Shown one piece after another: positions 3,461 through 64,000 of a stretch of 64,000 bases of DNA. The position numbers and the translations under genes were made by a program. Position 1 is the first letter of the stretch, and each line of letters starts with the position of its first letter. Source of the stretch: a virus (Duplodnaviria > Caudoviricetes). The DNA lies in the IMG/VR virus record IMGVR_UViG_3300033407_000004, positions 12,134 to 76,133 of that record; one strand, 5' to 3'. The notes below the pieces were generated by a model that saw nothing but the letters and a program-made list of their open reading frames with translations, ran no database searches and was not told where the DNA came from.

Positions 3461-4750
3461 TTATTGAGCCACCACAATTATCCGCCATGTTTGCGAACTG
3501 AAAGTATACCCATTCGCGTTTGCATTTGCCAGATGTATCATGACCGTATTTGTGGCCGAGACGGTAGCGTAAGCATTTACAAAATATGCCGCTAAATTAT
3601 TGTGCGGAGGGGTAATTATAACATTGTCTCCAACTTGCGCACCAGTAACAGTTAAAGTGGTCTCGGCGCCGCTCCCGGCATTGATCGTACCTGGAGCCCA
3701 TACCACGCTTCCGAAATAAACAGCTTTACCACTGATTTGCGTAGCAGATGTTGCAGTGGCTGAATTTCCCGTACAAGATCCAGAACTACCGGAAGCATTG
3801 CCGGTGACGTTGCCGGTCAGCGTCGCCGTAATCGTCCCCGCCGCAAAGTCCCCAGACGGATTTCTTGCGACAATTGTTTCCCCCGCATTTGACGATGCAG
3901 CATTCATCCCATCCAGTTTATCCGCATCCAGTCCTGACCCTGAGCCTGCGCCGGTTATGGTTGTTGACGGAAGGGAGACGGGGCCGGTGAATACTGCTGT
4001 ACCAGTCACATTTTGCGTCCCGCTCAATGTATTCGTACCGCTGCTGCTAATCGTCCCCGTTAGAGTCAAATACGCCGAGCTTGTGCCGCTGGTGAGCATG
4101 TCGGCGGAGAGGGCGGAGCCGGTAACTTTCATGATCGATACGTTTACATCCGTCCCGGTAGTGGCTGCGTCCAGTGATCCAGAGTCAAGGGAGACCGTGA
4201 CCGTAGTCGTCCCGGAAGCGTATGCCGAAGCAGTAACGCGCCCATAGACCGCGTTCCCGGTGATCGTCGCCTTGATGCGCATACCGACAGGGTAAATGTC
4301 CGTGTAGTCGCCGGTCACGGAGAACTGCGTTGCGCTGATGTAGGTGGATAATGCGCCCGCTGCGATCCATGGGCCGGTGGTGAGGTCTTCGGGGGTTGTG
4401 AAGGGCATCGAAGAGACGTTATCGGAAGTCCATATCGCAGTGCCAGTACTACAATTGGTCTGATTGGCGGCCATCAGCTTTACCTTGACCGGGCCTGTTA
4501 TCCAGATCGGCGATTCTCCCCGACTGTTCAGCGTTACAGACGTTCCGAGTGCGGTAGTCGCGGAAGCATCCGTGTACACTGCCTTTGGAGTGCTCGAATT
4601 TACCTCGAAAAAACAGACCTTGCACCCGTTGCAAGGACGACCTGCCGAGTCGTCGAAATGGGAAATAGGGGGTGGCAGGACGCTTGCTGTTCCAAAGGCA
4701 TTGCTTGCAAACAACATTGTGAGCATGAGCACTGAAGCGATTTTCTTCAT
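3461..4750 (-). CDS. Tail fibre with signal peptide and P22-type particle-binding N-domain
   Basis: True start 4750 (RBS AGGAG): MKKIASVLMLTMLFASNAFG; TPKAVYTDA...VTLNSRGE; GLDADKLDG fibre motif; Thr/Ser/Gly-rich. Confidence 0.8.
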   Translation of the reverse strand: MKKIASVLMLTMLFASNAFGTASVLPPPISHFDDSAGRPCNGCKVCFFEVNSSTPKAVYTDASATTALGTSVTLNSRGESPIWITGPVKVKLMAANQTNCSTGTAIWTSDNVSSMPFTTPEDLTTGPWIAAGALSTYISATQFSVTGDYTDIYPVGMRIKATITGNAVYGRVTASAYASGTTTVTVSLDSGSLDAATTGTDVNVSIMKVTGSALSADMLTSGTSSAYLTLTGTISSSGTNTLSGTQNVTGTAVFTGPVSLPSTTITGAGSGSGLDADKLDGMNAASSNAGETIVARNPSGDFAAGTITATLTGNVTGNASGSSGSCTGNSATATSATQISGKAVYFGSVVWAPGTINAGSGAETTLTVTGAQVGDNVIITPPHNNLAAYFVNAYATVSATNTVMIHLANANANGYTFSSQTWRIIVVAQ

Positions 4751-35303: not shown

Positions 35304-35361
35304 TTCTAACAAGCAGGTCCAGACGGACGCGAACACCGCGCCGCTGACCTGCGCGTTAAAC
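35304..35361 (+). repeat. attC-like site
   Basis: TTCTAAC-5-GGTC[C]AG[A]CGG...CCG-CTGACC-5-GTTAAAC. Confidence 0.85.
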
Positions 35362-35362
35362 A

Positions 35363-35767
35363 CTACCAGCGTTCCGAATCATCGAATCTGACAATGAGTT
35401 CGGAGGCTAATTTATAAAGCCATTCCATCATTGCCACATGCTGCTTCCAACTGTGTTTCCCGCAAAGATGAAGGTATCCGCCTTGCTGCTTTTTATCTCC
35501 CTCGCCTTCCTCTTCGCCAAACCATACATGACAACAGCCGTCCCACTTCATATATGCCGTGCAGTAAAGTTCCGTATCACAGGGCACATTTTCTTCGCCC
35601 CATGTAATTACTTCTTCAACCGTAACATTGATGTGCGTCTCGGATTTTTCTGTGATGGTAGCAATAAATCCGATGTATCCGTCAGGTCCGACGAAGTGTT
35701 TAACCAGGGGATCGACTCTCTCTGGCTTATTCTCGCTCGGCGCTGGTTTTGTTTGTTCTGTGCTCAT
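35363..35767 (-). CDS. Cassette gene, hypothetical
   Basis: Start codon and RBS lie inside the extended attC at 35698-35801. Confidence 0.65.
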   Translation of the reverse strand: MSTEQTKPAPSENKPERVDPLVKHFVGPDGYIGFIATITEKSETHINVTVEEVITWGEENVPCDTELYCTAYMKWDGCCHVWFGEEEGEGDKKQQGGYLHLCGKHSWKQHVAMMEWLYKLASELIVRFDDSERW

Positions 35768-35801
35768 CGGTTTCTCCTCGGGGGGCATCCCCGCGTTAGC
35801 T
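35698..35801 (+). repeat. Extended attC-like site containing RBS and start codon
   Basis: Minus: GCTAAC GCGGGGATG...GTC[G]ATCCCCTG GTTAAAC; homologous to 57006-57109. Confidence 0.75.
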
Positions 35802-35963
35802 CTTAACGTCCTTCTTCTTTCGGCGCGTTTCGGCTGATTTCTGAGCCATATCCCGCGCCTGCTCCGGTGTCAAAATACGGCGGGATTTGCTCCCGCCTTT
35901 GCTCGCCAATTCTTTTGCCGCTTTTTTGAGGCTGATTATGCCTCCGCAATGTGGGCACCTCAT
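35796..35963 (-). CDS. 55-aa basic Zn-knuckle protein, putative DNA-binding regulator
   Basis: Not in track: MRCPHCGG...SKGGSKSRRILTPEQARDMAQKSAETRRKK; TAATG coupling; stop in the TAAC box. Confidence 0.7.
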   Translation of the reverse strand: MRCPHCGGIISLKKAAKELASKGGSKSRRILTPEQARDMAQKSAETRRKKKDVKS

Positions 35964-36301
35964 TACTCGTCCTCGGCATCACGGGCAGTTTCGCGCTCAA
36001 AAATCAGGTCGCGTACCCGCTGCATAGACGATTCCGCGTCACCGTCCCAAAGCTCTGAGGACTCCTCTGCTGTAATAAGATCGTCCTCGATTGCATCCCG
36101 CTCCTCGCCAAGATACTCATAATAATCTGACCACCACTCGATAACTTGATCGGCGTCCTCGTGTCCCTCTACGTCTACCCGGCTCATCTCCCTGGAGCAA
36201 TCGCCGTACATTGACGTTTCGCTGCCCGGTGCAAACTCCTGCTCCCACTCCATTACTTTTTCCGCGAAATCTTGCATCTTTTTTGTCTTATACTCGCTCA
36301 T
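35963..36301 (-). CDS. Highly acidic 112-aa protein
   Basis: About 36 D/E versus 11 K/R; RBS GAGGAGG. Confidence 0.7.
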   Translation of the reverse strand: MSEYKTKKMQDFAEKVMEWEQEFAPGSETSMYGDCSREMSRVDVEGHEDADQVIEWWSDYYEYLGEERDAIEDDLITAEESSELWDGDAESSMQRVRDLIFERETARDAEDE

Positions 36302-36354
36302 TGCCGCCTCCTCAAGATGCGGGCCTTTTGTGGTCCCGTCTTACTCTTGAGACA

Positions 36355-36383
36355 ATATTAGCATAAGCGGTTATGCTTGTCAA
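36355..36383 (-). promoter_or_regulatory. Consensus promoter with palindromic operator
   Basis: TTGACA-17-TAATAT; the spacer carries AGCATAA-CCGC-TTATGCT. Confidence 0.75.
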
Positions 36384-36417
36384 GGGGTATTTGTAAAATA
36401 AATCTAAGTCAACACCG

Positions 36418-36475
36418 AGCTAACAAAACGATCCAGACGGGCGCTAAAATCGCGCCGCTGATCTGGACGTTAGCT
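36418..36475 (+). repeat. attC-like site
   Basis: AGCTAAC-5-GATC[C]AG[A]CGG...CCG-CTGATC-5-GTTAGCT. Confidence 0.85.
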
Positions 36476-37306
36476 CCTATAATCGTTCCATCTTACTGTT
36501 CTGAATACCTGCTTCGCGTTCACCCACCGGGCGAACCGGCGCTGATACTCGTTCCCCTTGTCCAGTGCCATAATGTACGGGTCGTATCCCATCGCGTCAA
36601 TTACCATGACCCTGTGCATATCCTCTTCCGGGGTCGTGTGTCCGATCATCACGTACACCATGACCTTTGACACTTTCGCGGTTTTCAGGTGGCAGAGGCC
36701 GCGCAATACTTCCGCTTCATGCTCGGGGTAATCCCATGCGAAGTGAAGATACCCTTCGCGCTTCAACTTCTTCACGGCCTGCGCCTGCTCCTCGCCTACG
36801 AGCCGAGCATCAAAGCCGTGTTCGATCACCGTCAACTTTGCGTCGGCGATCTCCGCGAACGTATCGCGCCAGTTCGGATCGGCAAACGTGTTATTGTTCA
36901 TCAGCATGATCTTACTGAACCTTGGTTCGTGGAAATCCCAAATCGAATAATGCGTTTCATCGTTCCGTTGCTTCGGGACAATGCAAAAATCACACGTTCG
37001 AGGGCAAGCCTTGTACGTGTAGCCCATCGAATAATCAATCTTCGGATACAACGTATAGTCCGGCCTCATCCGGTCCATCTCAGACGGCAATTTGCCCTCG
37101 GGATACTTCGGGCCTCCTACGAGATCCGCGACAGGATCAGGCGTACCCTGGAAGAGAACAGAGGCATACGTCAGGTCGGCGCTCGTCCCGGAGAACCACG
37201 GAAAATTCAGCGTCGTCTTGTCGCCCAACTTCCGATGATAGGCGCTGATTTTCATGGCCGCGAGGTTCGGCATTTTGCTATCGGGAGTATAGATATTTAC
37301 GAGCAT
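36470..37306 (-). CDS. Radical SAM-like Fe-S protein (cassette gene)
   Basis: PNLAAMKISAYHR, CPRTCDFC (CxxxCxxC); stop in the TAAC box. Confidence 0.8.
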   Translation of the reverse strand: MLVNIYTPDSKMPNLAAMKISAYHRKLGDKTTLNFPWFSGTSADLTYASVLFQGTPDPVADLVGGPKYPEGKLPSEMDRMRPDYTLYPKIDYSMGYTYKACPRTCDFCIVPKQRNDETHYSIWDFHEPRFSKIMLMNNNTFADPNWRDTFAEIADAKLTVIEHGFDARLVGEEQAQAVKKLKREGYLHFAWDYPEHEAEVLRGLCHLKTAKVSKVMVYVMIGHTTPEEDMHRVMVIDAMGYDPYIMALDKGNEYQRRFARWVNAKQVFRTVRWNDYRS

Positions 37307-37320
37307 AGTTTGTAAACCTG

Positions 37321-37377
37321 GGCTAACCAACGTATCGACGGGTCGCAAGACCCGCGCCCGTCATCCGGGCGTTATCG
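37321..37377 (+). repeat. attC-like site; 50 nt identical (inverted) to 57541-57590
   Basis: GGCTAAC...GTTATCG hairpin. Confidence 0.85.
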
Positions 37378-37746
37378 TGTCACATAGTTTAGGATTTCCA
37401 TTTTTAATTTTTTTATCTTTTTATTTGTTAATATATGCTCATTGTGTTCGTCGTTGCAGTCGGCCCATTCGAAAAAACAATATCGAGTTATCTTATTCTT
37501 ATTTTTTATACACTCTTGCAATATCGGAATGCACTGTGGATAAATCTTATATCGTTTTTTTACCATTTCATATGAAATTGGTACATCTCGCTCGGCAATT
37601 TCGTTATTATCCCAACAAACATCATTTATATGATCAAGCTCGCTGCATTTTTCTTGCGCAGCCGCAGTCGAAATCAAAAAAGCGACGATAACAAAAGCGT
37701 CGAGCAAGCGCCTATATTCTTTTTTCTGTTTCATTCGGTCCTCCAT
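37372..37746 (-). CDS. Cassette gene, Cys-rich probable secreted protein
   Basis: FVIVAFLISTAAA signal-like stretch; start inside attC 37686-37775. Confidence 0.55.
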   Translation of the reverse strand: MEDRMKQKKEYRRLLDAFVIVAFLISTAAAQEKCSELDHINDVCWDNNEIAERDVPISYEMVKKRYKIYPQCIPILQECIKNKNKITRYCFFEWADCNDEHNEHILTNKKIKKLKMEILNYVTR

Positions 37747-37775
37747 TTCCGGCGTTGCTCACGCCTCCGTTATCT
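37686..37775 (+). repeat. Extended attC-like site
   Basis: CGATAAC-5-CGT[C]GAGCAA[G]CGCC...GGCGTTGCTCACG-5-GTTATCT. Confidence 0.75.
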
Positions 37776-40630: not shown

Positions 40631-40732
40631 AACAAAATAACCGATCCATCCAGGAGTTTCCGAACGCAGTTTGGGGACCGCGTTCCCGCAGCTTTCGCTT
40701 TTGGGCATCCTGAATGAATCGGTTATTTTGTT
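40631..40732 (-). promoter_or_regulatory. Long hairpin in initiator 5' leader
   Basis: 15-bp perfect stem AACAAAATAACCGAT/ATCGGTTATTTTGTT with inner stems. Confidence 0.65.
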
Positions 40733-53140: not shown

Positions 53141-53830
53141 ATGCCAGACAAAAAACCTATTCAGATTTCAGGAAAAAACCTCGCAGCACTCGCCATGCCA
53201 GACGCTTGCCCGCGCTGCTTCTGGATCAAGAACACCGTAAAGAATTTGCCGTTTCAGATATTCCCCGGCATTTTCGCATCGATCGACAGCTACACAAAAA
53301 CCGTGGTCCACTCCGCGTTCGATCATGTCGGTAAGGCCCCTGCATGGCTCCCGGAATTATCCGAGGCTGTCAGGTATCTCAAGGTTCCGCACTGGTCGAA
53401 GTCCAAGCGCATAGACCCAGAGACCGGGATTATCGTTACCGCTGTTCCTGACGAACTCTTGGAATGCGCTGATGGATCTCTGATTATTCCGGACTACAAG
53501 ACCGCACGATACACCGATGGGCAAGACAAACTGTTACCCCTCTACCGGGCACAGCTTAACGCTTACCGCTGGGTATGGCAGGGGCTCGGTGCCACCGTTA
53601 AATCGTTGCCGCTGATCTACTGCGAACCGATGACCGATGCTCCGGTATTTGCCGTCGCCGGCTTCGATCTGCGTTTCATCCCGAAGACAGTCCTGATTGA
53701 CATTGACGACAATGTGGTGCCTGAACTTCTGCGGCAAGCGCACAGGATATTGACTTCCGGCATACCTGAGAAAAGCAATGAGTGCGGTGATTGCGAGAAG
53801 CTGAGTGCGCTTGTTGAGAAAGTCAGGTGA
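53141..53830 (+). CDS. PD-(D/E)xK nuclease
   Basis: CPRCFW, PDEL...IPDYKT, QLNAY, C-terminal CxxC. Confidence 0.8.
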   Translation: MPDKKPIQISGKNLAALAMPDACPRCFWIKNTVKNLPFQIFPGIFASIDSYTKTVVHSAFDHVGKAPAWLPELSEAVRYLKVPHWSKSKRIDPETGIIVTAVPDELLECADGSLIIPDYKTARYTDGQDKLLPLYRAQLNAYRWVWQGLGATVKSLPLIYCEPMTDAPVFAVAGFDLRFIPKTVLIDIDDNVVPELLRQAHRILTSGIPEKSNECGDCEKLSALVEKVR

Positions 53831-54276
53831 CGACCGAACACTTCCACGCCCGCACCGCCGCCGAGATCGACCAGTGCGCCAATTTTCTGAAGCTGGCGAT
53901 CCCTGCCCAAGGGTGGAGAATAACGTACACTCCGTGGAGGGAAAAGCGGTCGCTCAGTCAGAATTCGTTTATGCACGTAATATACCGGGACATCAGCAAC
54001 TACCTAATCAGCAAAGGCCGTTCAGAGTGGACGCCTGGAAAAGTCAAATTGATGCTTAAGAACAAGTACCTTGGCTGGACGGAAGTTGAGTTCACCGATG
54101 TTGTGACCGGGCAAGTAACCACCAGAGAAGTGCTGAAATCATCGTCAGCATTGGATGTAGGGGCGGCAAACCACTTCATAACTGAGATCATAGAATGGGC
54201 GGCCAGCATCGGCATTGAGATCAAAGTACCCGCTGAGTGCGAGTACCGGGATGTGTTGAATACGCAGAATAGGTAA
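53827..54276 (+). CDS. NinB/YbcN-like protein
   Basis: KRSLSQNSFMH, KLMLKNKYLG, FITEIIEWAA; stop in the first attC box. Confidence 0.8.
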   Translation: MTTEHFHARTAAEIDQCANFLKLAIPAQGWRITYTPWREKRSLSQNSFMHVIYRDISNYLISKGRSEWTPGKVKLMLKNKYLGWTEVEFTDVVTGQVTTREVLKSSSALDVGAANHFITEIIEWAASIGIEIKVPAECEYRDVLNTQNR

Positions 54277-54347
54277 CGTGCGCATGACGCGCCGCAAGGC
54301 GTGTCGCTGTCGATGCGCTGGTTAAAATCCAGCGCAAGAAAGGACAC

Positions 54348-56406
54348 ATGAGAAACGATTCTCTTTATAAATTTATGGCAGAAGAAATTCAACAAGCCAA
54401 AACGGAGAAACAAGCCGAAGTCATCGCCGGGAACATTGTCAAAGAGGCACTTTGGCAGGGAGAGCTTACAGCATACCGAAAGCTCTTGTCACATGTTCAT
54501 GCCGAAAGCGGAACGAATGACTTTCTTCCCTTGTTCGGAAAATTTTAACAATGAGTTGTTCGGTGCGGTAGCATCCGAACGAACGACTCGTTAGGCCATT
54601 TCACAGGGAGGGAATAAGCAATGTATAAACCGTACAAGCCAGAAGAAAAGATTGTTGACCGTGCTGTCGAGCTTTGGAAACGAATGCTGAAAAATCCGAA
54701 ATTCGACAATGGAGATTCAAGCGTTAACGGGTTTTTCGCTTCTTCGATGGCTAAGATGATCCCGAACAATGCCACGGATGAAGTTCTTCAGGCATTCGGG
54801 GACAACCTGAAAGCCGCGCTGATGAACCCAGACCCGGAATATAAACAAGAATTTTTCCACTCTTCGTTGGGCGTCGATTACGGACCCGACAAGGTTCTTC
54901 ACGAAGCCGCTGAAAAGGCCGGTCTAAAAATGGAGTTCCCCTGGAAAACTACCATGTCCCTTTGGACTGAGTACGTTTCGGTTTCGGCGGGGTACGGAGC
55001 CGATCGCGTTTATCATTACCCGTTGGCCGATGGGCGGTGGCTGATGACGACGCTTTGCGGTTCTGATATTTCAAAGATCATAGCATATTGTGAAGGCAAA
55101 GAACTGGCGTTCGAGATCGAGGGTCAAAAGGTCTAACACCAATTTGACGCGCAAGCGTCAGCGCAGCCGCAGTCGAAATTTTGGTTATGCGTGCTTTCAA
55201 TCTTAACTTCATAGGAGCAGACAAATGAAAACAATAGTTGTCAGATGGGTAAAAGAAGAAACATTCGGTTACGATAAAGCCATGCGAGTTGAATTTTCTT
55301 GCCATGAACGGTTTGTAGTTGGCAGTCGCTTTGACTTTGGATTTTTCAGCATAGCCACAGACGAGGGATACACAATTGTTTCATTACCGATGGAAAAGGA
55401 TTTAGACGCATAACGCGGAGGTAACGATGCGGAGCGAAGCGGAGCAATCAGTTGACCGACTGGTTGTGTGCGATGTATGCAAACAGGAAATACAGGAAAG
55501 CGCCATGACCGATGTTGATGATCTTGAGCCGAACGGCGATCATAAGACGTTGCTCGTTTGTCCGATGTGCATTGATGCCATGCAGCCGGTACATGAAAGC
55601 ATGATGCAAGTAACGCGAGAAATGGCATGTGACGCAGGGGACCGGAGCATGGAAGGTTCGTGGATTAAGTGGTAGTACACAACACGAACATGACCCGCTT
55701 TTGACGGGTCGATGTTCTGGTTGGACGCGGGTTTTGTCCAGCCAGAACGGAAAGGAATTAATTATGGATAAGCGGCAGCAATACGGATACATCAAAAATC
55801 AAATATGCCTTTTCTGCGGAAACATCGAGGACATAGAACCGGACGTGGAGCGCCCGTCATGCGGCGTTTGTGAAGTTGTGGGCAGCGAGGTTGAAACATA
55901 CGGGCATTGCTCGGAGTGGACGGAAATTAGATAGCGTCCAACGTCCGGGTCAGTCGCGCGTCTTGCGCGACGATCTGGACACGGTGGTTAGTCTCGGGGT
56001 TAATTCTATGAACGACAAAAAAAGAGCCGCACTCGATACGCTGATTGATAAAGTAAAACACGCCTATGAGCTTTTGGAGAACATGGACCACGACACGCTT
56101 GCCATGTTGATATTAGATTCTCCTTCCATTCGAGAATACTACGCTACTAAGAAGAAAGCAATGTCGGTTTGTATTTACTGCGGTATGGCAATAGAGCACC
56201 CGGAAGACCCAGAAAAAATCGCAGAGATTCATCATGCCCTTGTAAAGCATGATGCGCGTTGTCCTCAGAATCCGTTTGTTTTTGCGTTGAAACAGGTTAG
56301 ACAAATTGCCAAAGACGGACGGGACTGGAACCCCGGACATTTCTGTGAATCTCGGAGCAAGATGCAGTCAATCGTTGACCGGTGCGACAATGTTTTAAGA
56401 GACTAA
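54348..56406 (+). CDS. Six cassette genes (54348-54548, 54621-55136, 55225-55413, 55427-55675, 55764-55934, 56008-56406)
   Basis: One ORF per attC interval; several stops fall in TAAC boxes; products unrecognised. Confidence 0.7.
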
Positions 56407-56490
56407 CGCCTGAGTTGTGGGGCGGGCCGCTTGCGGCACGTCCCGCACGAACGACGGGTTATACGGCTGGCGGTTACTACGGAGAACAGG

Positions 56491-57306
56491 ATGCACAACT
56501 TGCAAAAAAATATGAGCAACGCCACTTTGCCGCCAGTGCTTGACGCCTGCTGCGGTAGCCGGATGTTTTGGTTTGACCGCAAGGACGACCGGGCGACGTT
56601 CGTGGACAAGCGCCGGGAGCGGCACACGCTGCCCGACATTTCCAGCAAGGGCGGAAGCCGCGAACTGGTAATTGACCCTGACCACTTGGCAGACTTCACC
56701 GACCTGCCTTTCCCGTCCGACACGTTTGCGCTGGTGGTTTTCGATCCACCGCACTTCGAGCGCAACGGCGCGACCGGATGGGTGGGGTTGAAGTACGGCA
56801 CGCTGAAAGGCGATTGGCAGTCGATGCTGCGCGAGGGATTTGCCGAATGCTTCCGCGTGCTGCGGCCTGAAGGGGTTTTGATTTTCAAGTGGTGCGAGGA
56901 CGAGATACCCGTTTCGCGGATTCTTGCACTGACACCGGAGCGCCCGCTTTTTGGCCACCGCAGCGGCAAGCAGCAGAAGACGCATTGGGTGACGTTTATG
57001 AAGCCGTATAACGCGGGGATGACCCGCACAGGAGAACCAATGAGCGACGAAAAAACCATGAACGAAACAAATGAGAATAAACCAGCCGGAGTCGATCCCC
57101 TGGTTATGACAATCGCGGATATAAGAGAATCTCTTGGAGTAGGACACAAGCCGATGCTTTCCGAACTGCCGGGCATTTGCAATGAATTTCGATTACTACT
57201 TTCAGAGGCTCGGTCATTTTGCCTTCGCATGGATTGCGACGGAGATCCACTGAATGACGATCTGGCGAGACGCATACAAATAGCTTTACGGATAACGCGA
57301 GGATGA
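56491..57306 (+). CDS. Class I SAM methyltransferase (DPPH) read through an attC into a second gene starting at 57040
   Basis: VLDACCGSRMFW, VVFDPPH, LRPEGVLIFKW, HWVTFMK, then YNAGMT (attC) and MSDEK. Confidence 0.8.
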   Translation: MHNLQKNMSNATLPPVLDACCGSRMFWFDRKDDRATFVDKRRERHTLPDISSKGGSRELVIDPDHLADFTDLPFPSDTFALVVFDPPHFERNGATGWVGLKYGTLKGDWQSMLREGFAECFRVLRPEGVLIFKWCEDEIPVSRILALTPERPLFGHRSGKQQKTHWVTFMKPYNAGMTRTGEPMSDEKTMNETNENKPAGVDPLVMTIADIRESLGVGHKPMLSELPGICNEFRLLLSEARSFCLRMDCDGDPLNDDLARRIQIALRITRG

Positions 57307-57366
57307 GACGCGGCTTTCCGCGTCGTTCTCGATCCTCTGGTTAAAATCCAGAGGGAAAGGAAAGGC

Positions 57367-57923
57367 ATGAACGAGCAGGAGAAAAAAGAAGTCGAAGAGA
57401 GCATAACTTTATCAGAAGAAATTGTCCGTGCAGCTTGTATTAAGGTGCTCACAGATAAGCATTTTGAACTTGCGAAACGAAGCTATCCGCCGCCAAAAAT
57501 CCTTTTGGATTTGGCACAGGAGATGAGGGAACTTAAATTTTAACGCCCGGATGACGGGCGCGGGTCTTGCGACCCGTCGATACGTTGGTTGGACTCAGAG
57601 GTGATCGAATGGCATGGACATATTTGAAATTCAATAAAGCCGGGAACATCTTGAAACGCTCCCCGAAATTGCCGGGCGAGAGACACGCATACCTCGGGTT
57701 TGATCTTCTTCGGATGATGACCGTGATCGGGTATACCGAGCGGGGCGGGTTCAGTTCGTTCCTCGGACCGAACGTAAACGACGATTGCAATATTGTCGCC
57801 TGGGCTCCGCTGTCTGAAAAAGAGAGCGCCGACATTGATGTGATCCAGAAAAATTGTCCCTTTTATCCATGGGACGATGGAGATACATGCGACGCATCGG
57901 AAATACCGCTGTTGATTCGATGA
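57367..57923 (+). CDS. Two cassette genes (57367-57543, 57609-57923)
   Basis: RBS present; bounded by attC boxes. Confidence 0.6.
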
Positions 57924-57943
57924 GTCCAACCAGGCATTAGATC
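57924..57943 (-). promoter_or_regulatory. attI-like recombination site
   Basis: Minus: GATCTAAT-GCCTG-GTTGGAC; no attC hairpin; terminates the array. Confidence 0.5.
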
Positions 57944-57963
57944 GTCTTTAAAAGGTATCGAGT

Positions 57964-58233
57964 ATGCTAAACAATCGTAAAACACGCGAAGAGATTAGGG
58001 AATTTAACTCCCGACGCGCTAGCCATGCAGCAAATGTTAGGTGGCAACGGGAACACGAAAACAGTCCGTGCCCAATCTATGGCGATCCGAGACCTGACGA
58101 AATGTATGAGTTTGTCATGCGAAATAAAATGTCAGGCAAAGAGCATACATTCTGTTTCATCCGGGGCCGCGCAATGATTCGTTCAGGATTGATATGGACG
58201 GAGAGCCGTGGAAAGTTGGCGGATTCACGCTGA
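57964..58233 (+). CDS. Hypothetical protein
   Basis: ORF only; no integrase motifs. Confidence 0.4.
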   Translation: MLNNRKTREEIREFNSRRASHAANVRWQREHENSPCPIYGDPRPDEMYEFVMRNKMSGKEHTFCFIRGRAMIRSGLIWTESRGKLADSR

Positions 58234-58282: not shown

Positions 58283-58801
58283 ATGGTGAGACAAAAAAAA
58301 TTAAAGACACGCAAAGGAAACGAACTCTCCACTGAACATTTAAAGGCGAGAATTTTGAATTCTGTCAATATAGATACTTCGTCTGGGTGTTGGCTGTGGA
58401 CAAGAACTTGTAATAACAAGGGATACGGAACCATGACAGTAAACAAAAAGACTGTCCTTTCGCATCGCATCAGCTTTGAGGTATTTAATAGAAGATTGCT
58501 TGATCGAACACTAGTATTGCATCGTTGCGACAATCCGCCTTGCTGTAATCCAAATCATTTATTTTCAGGGACTCATCAAGATAACGTGCTTGATGCAATC
58601 AAAAAGGGGCGATTGTTTAGACTTCCACCCATAAGCTTTACAGGCTCATCAAATCCAATGTCTAAGCTTATTGAAAAAGATGTGAAGGAAATAAGAACAA
58701 GACTTTCCAGTGGAGAGTTTCAAGAAAGTATAGCCAAAGACTATGGTGTATCTAAATCATTGATTTCTGCAATTGCAACCGGCAGGCTATGGAGTATTTA
58801 A
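58283..58801 (+). CDS. HNH endonuclease with C-terminal HTH
   Basis: GCWLWT...KGYG...HRISF...VLHRCDNPPCCNPNHLFSGTHQDN. Confidence 0.9.
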   Translation: MVRQKKLKTRKGNELSTEHLKARILNSVNIDTSSGCWLWTRTCNNKGYGTMTVNKKTVLSHRISFEVFNRRLLDRTLVLHRCDNPPCCNPNHLFSGTHQDNVLDAIKKGRLFRLPPISFTGSSNPMSKLIEKDVKEIRTRLSSGEFQESIAKDYGVSKSLISAIATGRLWSI

Positions 58802-63290: not shown

Positions 63291-64000
63291 TTACCGCTTA
63301 GTATAGTGAAAAATAATATCTTTGATTGTTACCGACAACGCGCTTGCCGCATTATTTGTTTCCATCACCCTTGTAACTATCGAAATTGCGGATGAAGAAT
63401 TAAGCCATGCAGGGTTATCGAAGGTTTTTGTAAGCACATGATTTTCATGTGTTGACCCGTCACTATTAGACCTTTTTGCTGCTGTATCGTGGTTAGAGTC
63501 ATAGCTCATTGATAAATTCGACGGGATTGATGGCGCGGAACCGTCAGATGGCGCTGTTCTCGTTCTTACGGTAATCCCAATATCGTCACCTGGGTCAGAG
63601 TTTGTTATATTATATACCATGGTTACTGAGGTTGGCATTATCCCATATGAGGTAGTAGTAACCATAGAGACAGGAATCTCTATGACGTGAAAATGCTCCG
63701 TGTTGTTTGCTGCATCTCTTGCTAATGAGGGTAAATAGTCGGCGTCGTAAGTTCTTGTCCAAGTACCTGAAACAGCCGTTCCTAAAAGGCCAATTACCGA
63801 AAGACTGGCCGTTTCATCGTATCCCGAGAAATCGCCATAGTACCGATACCCATTATCTGTTATTGTGACCACTGCCCCTTCGTCTCTATTCCCTTGATAC
63901 CAAAAACTGTCATTTGCCGTTAAGGATATCACTGAAAGACCCGTGTAGTTTGATCCAATAAATGAATTAATAAATTTGATTTTTGGTTGATAGGAACCTA
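63291..64000 (-). CDS. C-terminal part of a probable tail spike/receptor-binding protein
   Basis: Frame open to the window edge; Ser/Thr/Asn-rich beta composition; AT-rich. Confidence 0.55.
   Translation of the reverse strand, partial: GSYQPKIKFINSFIGSNYTGLSVISLTANDSFWYQGNRDEGAVVTITDNGYRYYGDFSGYDETASLSVIGLLGTAVSGTWTRTYDADYLPSLARDAANNTEHFHVIEIPVSMVTTTSYGIMPTSVTMVYNITNSDPGDDIGITVRTRTAPSDGSAPSIPSNLSMSYDSNHDTAAKRSNSDGSTHENHVLTKTFDNPAWLNSSSAISIVTRVMETNNAASALSVTIKDIIFHYTKR

Follow-up and report, generated by a model that had tools for sequence, protein, structure and literature searches.

In the rightward early operon of an uncultured tailed phage, ten gene cassettes of the integron type very probably form an integrase-less cluster of attC sites (CALIN) in which the polarity of the cargo is the reverse of the classical one. 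The DNA under study, hereafter the window, is a stretch of 64,000 nucleotides corresponding to bases 12134-76133 of a single IMG/VR virus contig of 76,133 bp (G000). The array is marked out by ten hairpins on the + strand of the window, at 54275-57590 (all coordinates are those of the window unless a contig is named), which were both read in the sequence and recovered by folding. These hairpins are true integron-type attC sites. Their bottom strand is the + strand, i.e., the coding one, and, as such, each gene is carried by the recombining strand and comes after its own hairpin. In a preliminary description drawn from the letters alone, ten cassettes without integrase had already been noticed at this place, with each hairpin assigned to the open reading frame (ORF) preceding it and the crossover placed at the G/TT opening each interval (the slash marking the crossover). 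While the array itself stands, the hairpin has instead to be assigned to the ORF following it, with the crossover at AA/C.

Identity of the hairpins as attC sites

Once aligned with MAFFT, all ten sites present the same geometry on the + strand, i.e., AAC-N8 (once N9)-3bp...3bp-unpaired G-N8-GTT. Each of them is an imperfect palindrome bounded by 5'-(RYYY)AAC ... GTT(RRRY)-3' and folding as a single-strand hairpin, which is what characterises an attC site, with DNA folding energies ranging from -5.8 to -15.5 kcal/mol. Numbering the sites S0 to S9 and the cassettes c1 to c10 from left to right, the R and L boxes of S1, S5 and S6 enclose a 5-nt spacer which is for the most part unpaired, like in classical sites (in S1, for instance, G-AAC-GACTC-GTTAGGC), and in the other seven sites six of the eight spacer positions can pair, with mismatches in S2, S3 and S9. 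As had been described, each interval between hairpins holds one + strand ORF, the only exception being the ORF of a DNA methyltransferase (start at 56491), which runs through the hairpin at 57010-57105 into the next ORF. In half of the cassettes (5/10), the final three bases are a TAA stop codon. The two ends of every interval are complementary, as expected for the closure of the R'/R'' stem in the circular form of a cassette. Counted from GTT, the exact complementarity extends over 8, 5, 9, 7, 9, 9, 11, 5, 8 and 10 nt, in agreement with the lengths given in the preliminary description, the second value being 5 for an exact match and 7/8 when one mismatch is allowed. Beyond the fixed triplets, this represents 51 matched bases over the ten intervals, for a chance expectation of about 0.33 per pair.

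A geometric regular expression, namely AAC-N7-9-3bp...3bp-G-N8-GTT, was tried and rejected as unspecific, with 55 matches in the genome against 38 in shuffled sequences, and a covariance model was used instead. This model, called R1, was built from 12 sites of the window and six sites of other IMG/VR contigs. The ten sites obtain 33-52 bits (E 4e-8 to 3e-15) and, over the whole window, the model finds only these + strand sites and five - strand sites at 35308-37771, three of the fifteen being outside the training set. The preliminary description had made its proposal depend on the scoring of the sites by covariance models, and such scoring is obtained here, R1 being a model of the present analysis and not that of IntegronFinder. 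Known attC sites are recognised as well. The aadA1 attC of R100 is matched with 31.9 bits (E 8e-8), not on the aadA1 strand but on the opposite one, that of intI1. In R100, the 60-mer of this attC lies directly after aadA1 on the coding strand, with intI1 upstream and divergent, and the bottom strand displays the same spacing from G to GTT, i.e., G-AACGAATT-GTT. R1 further matches the three attC sites of phage TJE1 (27-33 bits), phage PH101 (31.7 bits) and the arrays adjoining true integron integrases in two metagenome-assembled genomes (MAGs) of Nitrospirota, there always on the intI strand. A pattern scan of bacterial genomes gave 26 matches, which is about the number expected by chance, and only those confirmed by R1 were used. 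The integron-type nature of the sites and cassettes, as first put forward, is thus borne out by the recognition of the R100 and TJE1 sites and by the family adjoining a true integron integrase (IntI) in three contigs. Regarding other kinds of structures, the hairpins have no match in Rfam, and the right array shows neither terminator-like sites on the + strand nor an excess of promoter-like sites.

No tyrosine or serine recombinase is encoded in the whole 76,133-bp contig, where searches with PF00589, TIGR02249 and PF00239 gave no candidate at E<=1. The absence of integrase reported for the window consequently holds for the entire contig, and an IntI encoded on the same contig outside the window, one of the sources originally envisaged, is excluded. 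Because the whole contig is devoid of integrase, the array corresponds to the definition of a CALIN, i.e., at least two clustered attC sites with no integron integrase nearby, here ten sites in 3.3 kb. A complete integron, with intI and an adjacent attI, is not present, as there is no intI and the attI likeness of the right end is weak.

Polarity, boundaries and genomic setting of the cassettes

In array form, the two possible polarities look alike, both reading as an ORF, a stop in the AAC box, a hairpin and a GTT box. Four independent lines identify the + strand as the bottom strand, namely that (i) the unpaired G is found on the arm opposite AAC in all ten sites, exactly 8 nt 5' of GTT and beside the 3-bp stem, (ii) R1 matches known sites on the strand opposite their genes but the phage sites on the coding strand, (iii) a hairpin stands at the ninB end of the array and a hairpin-less box at 57930, and (iv) the homology of a shared cassette runs from the upstream AAC to the next AAC. 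The recombinogenic strand of attC sites indeed bears one or more extrahelical bases on the arm facing AAC, the distance to the R box being fixed (PMC5027507). As for the ends, a classical array read on its bottom strand toward attI likewise begins with a hairpin and finishes without one. Since the coding strand is the bottom strand, every hairpin goes with the ORF that follows it, and the crossover falls at AA/C. The + strand fold is also more stable by 0.9 kcal/mol on average and the + strand is G-rich, both in agreement with the expectation for a bottom strand, these two asymmetries being weak and confounded by the GC skew of the whole arm.

A cassette that recurs elsewhere in another context, and is homologous there only up to the crossover triplet, is seen in a second array of the phage and, more weakly, in the right array. 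In the second array, the radical-SAM cassette matches a metagenome contig (L103) with 74% identity over 914 nt, the cassette proteins being 73% identical; this match begins precisely with the AAC of the upstream core and stops at that of the following site, and neither the upstream flank nor the downstream hairpin is related. The only shared cassette of the right array is c7, the DNA methyltransferase, a 47.5% identical homologue of which, itself bounded by sites, occurs in L012. Both have the subtype of the upstream site in common (TGAGTT...GAACGA, at S6 in the array) but not the downstream site. The closing box of c7 is without an in-frame stop (...CCG TAT AAC...) and the frame continues through S7 to 57306, while comparison of the C-termini indicates that the homologue ends on TAA/C at the equivalent place. 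Similarly, the ORF of c8 has no stop in its box and ends 11 nt inside S8. The classical layout, i.e., a promoterless top-strand ORF followed by its attC, is found for none of the ten cassettes. In the window, 13/13 intervals have an ORF on the strand matched by R1, and ORFs on that strand are backed by homology for c7 (phrog_954), the radical SAM of the left array, an MT-A70 gene in L010 and a PAPS_reduct gene in L016.

On the + strand, each cassette reads C-[hairpin]-GTT-box-RBS-ORF-box'-AA, where RBS is the ribosome-binding site, with the stop usually on the crossover triplet (TAA/C), and an integron integrase would be expected to cut AA/C at the 5' side of each hairpin. The ninB end would then carry the oldest cassette and the 57930 end would be the attI side, where new cassettes enter. 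Transcription of the cassettes, which would be devoid of promoters and terminators of their own, would presumably proceed by read-through from an early phage promoter toward the attI end. As the phage has no integrase, gain, loss or reordering of cassettes would need an IntI in trans, and candidate donors are a co-infecting phage with the same attC family and an intI (such as the contigs G001, G004 and L094 described below) or a chromosomal integron of the host. The provision of IntI in trans, any activity of the array at the present day and the read-through of its genes are all inferred.

The 3' arm of some attC sites can also pair with the sequence just downstream, namely after S0, S4 and S8 (54315-54335, 55714-55748 and 57334-57354), through GCGCTGG/CCAGCGC, GTTCTGG/CCAGAAC and CCTCTGG/CCAGAGG, and these three covary; an alternative hairpin of this kind would compete with attC folding. 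Two long sites of 96 nt, S7 at 57010-57105 and the left-array site at 35702-35797, are homologous and contain in their loop an RBS, an ATG (at 57040 in S7) and about 20 codons, which in S7 are the first codons of c8. The proteins fused after the GTT box of these two sites are unrelated, and a similar long site is present in L091 (283-361). As such, the long attC seems to double as a portable translation start.

The features of the right array are collected in Table 1, together with the sites of the second array. The latter belongs to the leftward arm of the genome, which comprises genes for the portal, large terminase, major head protein, head closure, a helicase and a methyltransferase; its genes again lie on the attC bottom strand. 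With ten plus five sites, the phage carries fifteen cassettes over two arrays. The rightward early arm encodes an SbcC-like protein, RecT, an MBL-fold nuclease, a PD-(D/E)XK nuclease and a NinB/YbcN-like protein, and the right array is located between this last gene and an 89-aa ORF, 3' of which are genes for an HNH endonuclease and for ProQ-like, ASCH and DUF5131 proteins. The GC skew of the genome has its minimum at about 47-48 kb. Bases 3-128 of G000 equal its last 126 bases, and this 126-nt end overlap suggests a closed or circular assembly. Of note, long perfect or near-perfect palindromes at 40631-40732 and 63660-63780 matched the loose geometric scan on both strands and are left unscored by R1.

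Table 1. Features of the right array and its borders, with the attC sites of the second array (coordinates of the window; slash, crossover point; bits, R1 scores)
Feature	Position	Strand	Remarks
NinB/YbcN-like backbone gene, 5' of array	53827..54276	+	weak Pfam NinB match; homologues named YbcN family; TAA stop falls in GGTAA/C, the outer box of S0
attC S0 (bottom strand on +), part of cassette 1	54275..54323	+	48.1 bits; fold; GTC-G-ATGCGCTG-GTT geometry
ORF of cassette 1 (span 54277-54548)	54348..54548	+	66 aa; TAA is the last 3 bases of the cassette (TAA/C)
attC S1	54547..54592	+	32.8 bits
ORF of cassette 2 (span 54549-55136)	54621..55136	+	171 aa; phage family phrog_8937; nearest Atlas clusters mostly viral
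attC S2	55135..55186	+	46.9 bits
ORF of cassette 3 (span 55137-55413)	55225..55413	+	62 aa
attC S3	55412..55465	+	36.3 bits
ORF of cassette 4 (span 55414-55682)	55427..55675	+	at most 82 aa, Cys-rich; first ATG inside S3
attC S4	55681..55722	+	shortest site, 42 nt; 38.4 bits; fold
ORF of cassette 5 (span 55683-55941)	55764..55934	+	56 aa; two CxxC pairs
attC S5	55940..55989	+	51.2 bits; close relative at IMG/VR L015 6124-6169
ORF of cassette 6 (span 55942-56406)	56008..56406	+	132 aa
attC S6	56405..56460	+	9-nt spacer; 32.7 bits
ORF of cassette 7 (span 56407-57011)	56491..57012	+	DNA methyltransferase; phrog_954, 229 bits
attC S7	57010..57105	+	long, 96 nt; 35.8 bits, outside R1 training set
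ORF of cassette 8 (span 57012-57295)	57040..57306	+	88 aa; start inside S7
attC S8	57294..57342	+	51.5 bits; fold
ORF of cassette 9 (span 57296-57543)	57367..57543	+	58 aa
attC S9	57542..57590	+	49-nt core
ORF of cassette 10 (span 57544-57929)	57600..57923	+	107 aa; TGA in closing box
Closing box of last cassette, TGAGTCCAA/C (TGAGTCCAAC)	57921..57930	+	without hairpin after it (fold -3.4 kcal/mol); crossover at array end between 57929 and 57930
Candidate attI remnant, C/CAGGCATTAGATCGTC...	57930..57963	+	weak resemblance to attI-like stretches of G001, G004, L094 and L017
Backbone ORF, 3' of array	57964..58233	+	89 aa; followed by HNH endonuclease at 58283-58801; neither is a recombinase
Second array, five attC sites	37690-37771, 37325-37373, 36422-36471, 35702-35797, 35308-35357	-	R1

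Regarding relatives of the phage, a second contig encodes a NinB 99% identical to that of G000. A single NinB protein query found no relatives in viral or metagenome contigs, and an alignment query gave 18 loci having only ninB as common feature, none of them an empty-site relative; among these loci, an 83-kb phage (L066/L067) has attC sites elsewhere in its genome. The relatives of RecT in IMG/VR are without attC sites, and only the SbcC-RecT-MBL module is in common.

Related sites in phages, metagenomes and bacteria

A pattern search derived from the sites led to eight IMG/VR contigs, in seven of which R1 shows multi-site arrays, and a ninth contig, the 83-kb phage L066/L067 mentioned above, also carries sites. 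The 49-nt core of S9 is identical (49/49) to that of the left-array site at 37325-37373 and of sites in L013 and L015, and differs by one mismatch in L016 and L017, the flanks being each time unrelated on both sides. Another 21 metagenome contigs contain identical or near-identical S9 cores, again between unrelated flanks, and almost all of them have additional sites on that strand. A near-identical core of S3 is likewise found between unrelated flanks in the metagenome contigs L085 and L102. Such cores are reminiscent of chromosomal integrons with their uniform attC sites, and suggest that cassettes are formed in a common place. When considering gene orientation, about 12 of the 22 intervals at the IMG/VR loci are clearly on the same strand as the sites, a single interval of 174 bp is opposite and the rest are ambiguous; for the 21 metagenome contigs, the figures are 21 same-strand intervals, none opposite and 19 ambiguous.

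Three arrays of this family have a true IntI of their own, namely those of G004/L015, G001/L010 and the metagenome contig L094. G001, a phage contig of 35 kb, encodes terminase, virion, adaptor and tail proteins, and G004 has virion and tail-fibre genes. Against TIGR02249 (cut-off 265 bits), the IntI of G004/L015 scores 436 bits and that of G001/L010 292 bits, with 47% and 40% identity to IntI1, respectively, and the IntI of L094 is 49% identical to that of G004. No robust grouping emerged from a tree of ten IntI sequences (support 0.80), which were those of phage contigs, Nitrospirota and class 1. In G001, G004 and L094, the order on one strand is cassette genes, hairpin-less box and then a co-directional intI. 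In G001 and L094, a short attI-like stretch lies between the box and intI; in G004, the box and the attI-like stretch are just upstream of intI, about 2.5 kb past the last site detected by R1. The intI-attI-attC polarity of these arrays is thus classical and only the cargo is flipped.

Some of the stretches following the box are alike, i.e., AAC/AACCTTTAGACCGCC... in L017 (~380-425, -), AAC/AACTATTAGAACGCC... in L048 (~118-175), AAC/TATGTTTAGCCATCC... in L094 (~3505-3560, -) and AAC/AAAATAGTATCCGG... in L050 (~3585-3640, -). They constitute a candidate attI family of phage-borne integrons, L017 ending before any intI. At the end/start of G001 (L010 11127-11400), a 224-bp cassette without clear ORF forms a tandem repeat beside the attI-intI end of what is a complete, phage-borne integron; the ends of G001 share 127 nt inside this repeat and its copy number is therefore uncertain.

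The kind of element is already known, since phage CALINs have been published, and it is its size, with ten plus five sites, that stands out. Seventeen phage CALINs, each with at least two sites, have been reported by Qi et al. (2023; PMC9892861), virulent phages included. The published arrays are like the present one in being integrase-less, in the recurrence of methyltransferases among their cassettes and in having sites recognised by R1 (TJE1 and PH101), but they are small compared with it, TJE1 having three sites and four ORFs (PMC9892861). Unlike them, the attC family described here is common to uncultured phages with their own IntI at the array end. In the same report, IntI1 recombined five of the six phage attC sites tested, recombination by IntI1 being shown for two sites of TJE1, and the passages on TJE1 and PH101 describe a typical bacterial structure, with no discussion there of the gene strand relative to the bottom strand (PMC9892861). 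Judged by R1, the polarity of TJE1 is classical. PH101, a Pseudoalteromonas phage (KR534323) published as virulent, appears to be of reversed polarity, with four R1 matches at 75923-77983 (L107 2424-4484, -), two of which are without the bulged G, on the same strand as all neighbouring genes. No description of a reversed cassette layout was found in the literature searched.

With the class 1 integron In2 of R100 (intI1-attI1-aadA1-attC), the phage array has in common the AAC...GTT boxes, the bulged G at 8 nt from GTT on the bottom strand and the complementary boxes at cassette ends; in In2, the sense strand of intI is also the bottom strand. The cargo of R100 is, however, on the top strand and read from the Pc promoter away from intI, whereas that of the phage occupies the bottom strand and is read in the direction of the attI end; furthermore, and unlike In2, the phage array has neither intI nor Pc, and its R/L spacers are mostly paired. 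The integrons of the Nitrospirota MAGs have the same attC types as the phage and adjoin an IntI, the locus L031 differing from the S9 core at three to four positions. Their long ORFs (193-1187 aa) lie opposite the R1 strand, which is the classical arrangement, whereas the phage cassettes are short. Those phage cassettes having any family match belong to phage families, and the shared attC types would be the only link of Nitrospirota to the phage. The Nitrospirota MAGs G006 and G007 (loci L053, L054, L058, L059 and L061-L064) each encode two IntI above the TIGR02249 cut-off as well as weaker or broken partial matches, and very large cassettes with ORFs of 879-1187 aa are found in their arrays.

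Like the phage, sedentary chromosomal integrons, including the superintegron of V. cholerae (PMC13108822), hold many unrelated cassettes whose attC cores are almost alike. Integration of cassettes at so-called attG sites, outside the att sites, has also been put forward (bioRxiv 10.1101/2022.09.11.507474) and, going by that report, might account for the entry of a first cassette at a simple GTT/AAC site in an integron-free genome. The reconstructed empty site would here be ...AATAGGTAA/CCAGGCATTAG... in the spacer between ninB and the next ORF; contrary to the attG view, the weak attI likeness of the array end would suggest a loss of intI instead. In the 'inverted integrase' integrons of Treponema, Chlorobi and others, intI is flipped and lies upstream of classical cassettes. 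Like in this group, intI and the cassette genes are co-directional in G001, G004 and L094, but there it is the cargo that is flipped, intI is downstream of the cassettes and the intI-attI-attC polarity is classical.

Alternative explanations and possible significance

Were the cassettes of classical polarity, each ORF would travel with the hairpin following it and the crossover would be at G/TT on the + strand, the first hairpin closing a large 'cassette' made of backbone genes and the last cassette having lost its attC. The published phage TJE1 does have this polarity, and neither the form of the array, which looks the same, nor the complementarity of the boxes discriminates. The position of the unpaired G on the arm opposite AAC in 10/10 sites nonetheless contradicts it, as do the R1 matches to known attC sites, which lie opposite the genes concerned and, for Nitrospirota, on the strand of intI, the two ends of the array, which fit the reversed polarity only, and the fact that a homologous cassette keeps its upstream site and not its downstream one; classical polarity is consequently very improbable. 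Hairpins acting as intergenic terminators, RNA processing sites or repeats resembling repetitive extragenic palindromes (REP-like) have a practically negligible probability: the hairpins are intergenic, GC-rich and regularly spaced, as such elements would be, but none is terminator-like on the + strand or matches Rfam, and box complementarity, a bulged G at a fixed position, the cross-recognition of validated attC sites and the linkage to IntI elsewhere all speak against such elements.

Another possibility is a fossil array, delivered in the past by an integrase, perhaps that of a phage-type integron which later lost its intI, with cassettes now fixed, hairpins reduced to spacers or RNA structures and no further exchange. 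It agrees with a contig devoid of integrase, with no variant of the phage having been found in the viral and metagenome contigs searched, with a right end only weakly like the attI of the IntI-bearing relatives and with the loss of the in-box stops of c7 and c8. Neutral decay would however erode the sites, whereas AAC, GTT and the bulged G are kept in 10/10 of them and the box pairs are perfect in 9/10; besides, a core identical over 49/49 positions in the two arrays and in two phage contigs from other samples points to recent exchange and a shared pool, so that a fossil array is unlikely, though not to be neglected. The same cores, identical over 49 nt between unrelated flanks and unexplained by a single IntI crossover, could alternatively serve as short homologies for an integrase-independent exchange by a RecT/SbcC-like/exonuclease system, all the more as RecT, SbcC-like, MBL-fold and PD-(D/E)XK nuclease proteins are encoded immediately upstream. 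Such a system cannot create an inverted complementarity of 5-11 nt between boxes, homology in the shared cassette breaks off at the AAC triplets and not inside the cores, and true IntI genes accompany the family; it could act in addition to IntI, not instead of it, and as the whole explanation it is improbable.

For the CALIN of reversed polarity, several points have to be set on the other side of the balance. No recombination event was observed, and searches of viral and metagenome contigs found no close relative with a different cassette content. Identical 49-nt cores combined with unrelated boxes and ORFs cannot come from one IntI crossover. In most sites, the spacer that separates the R and L boxes can pair over much of its length (6/8 nt), as opposed to the unpaired central spacer of classical attC sites, which could affect recognition by a given IntI. 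The clean comparison of cassette boundaries is that of the second array, the right array offering only the weaker comparison of the methyltransferases. R1 was built in this analysis from phage sites and is distinct from attc_4 of IntegronFinder and from HattCI. As for the contig, CheckV gives it as 89% complete and IMG/VR lists it as linear, the end overlap being no proof of a circle.

Beyond the array itself, it is proposed tentatively, with slightly more reserve than conviction, that phages may have an integron design of their own, in which bottom-strand cargo and a co-directional order of cassettes, attI and intI would be served by a phage promoter, arrays such as the present one would be clients of an IntI acting in trans, and orientation would insulate the cassette pools. 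With the cargo flipped, the bottom strand would coincide with the non-template strand. Should the skew minimum at about 47-48 kb mark an origin, the bottom strand would also be on the lagging-strand template, a situation which raises attC folding and excision in V. cholerae (PMC13108822). The phage sites, including the long attC with its RBS and start codon, provide a set of substrates for examining strand choice, transcription and replication direction in relation to recombination. In the arrays of this phage, every gene with a clear strand lies opposite to the strand used in bacterial integrons. Integron finders assuming the classical gene orientation will give each phage cassette the wrong attC.

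Integrons are bacterial gene-capture devices, and chromosomal integrons, according to recent work, store anti-phage defence cassettes. If the proposed design is true, phage and bacterial cassettes would use one recombination machinery and one set of attC sites and yet be silent in each other's arrays, with orientation insulating the accessory pool of phages, e.g., methylases, radical SAM proteins and PAPS reductase, from the bacterial pools. Should the pattern be general, phages would have their accessory genes, counter-defence genes probably among them, circulate in a parallel cassette economy by means of a host-type recombinase, and cassettes moved between phage and bacterial arrays would become silent.

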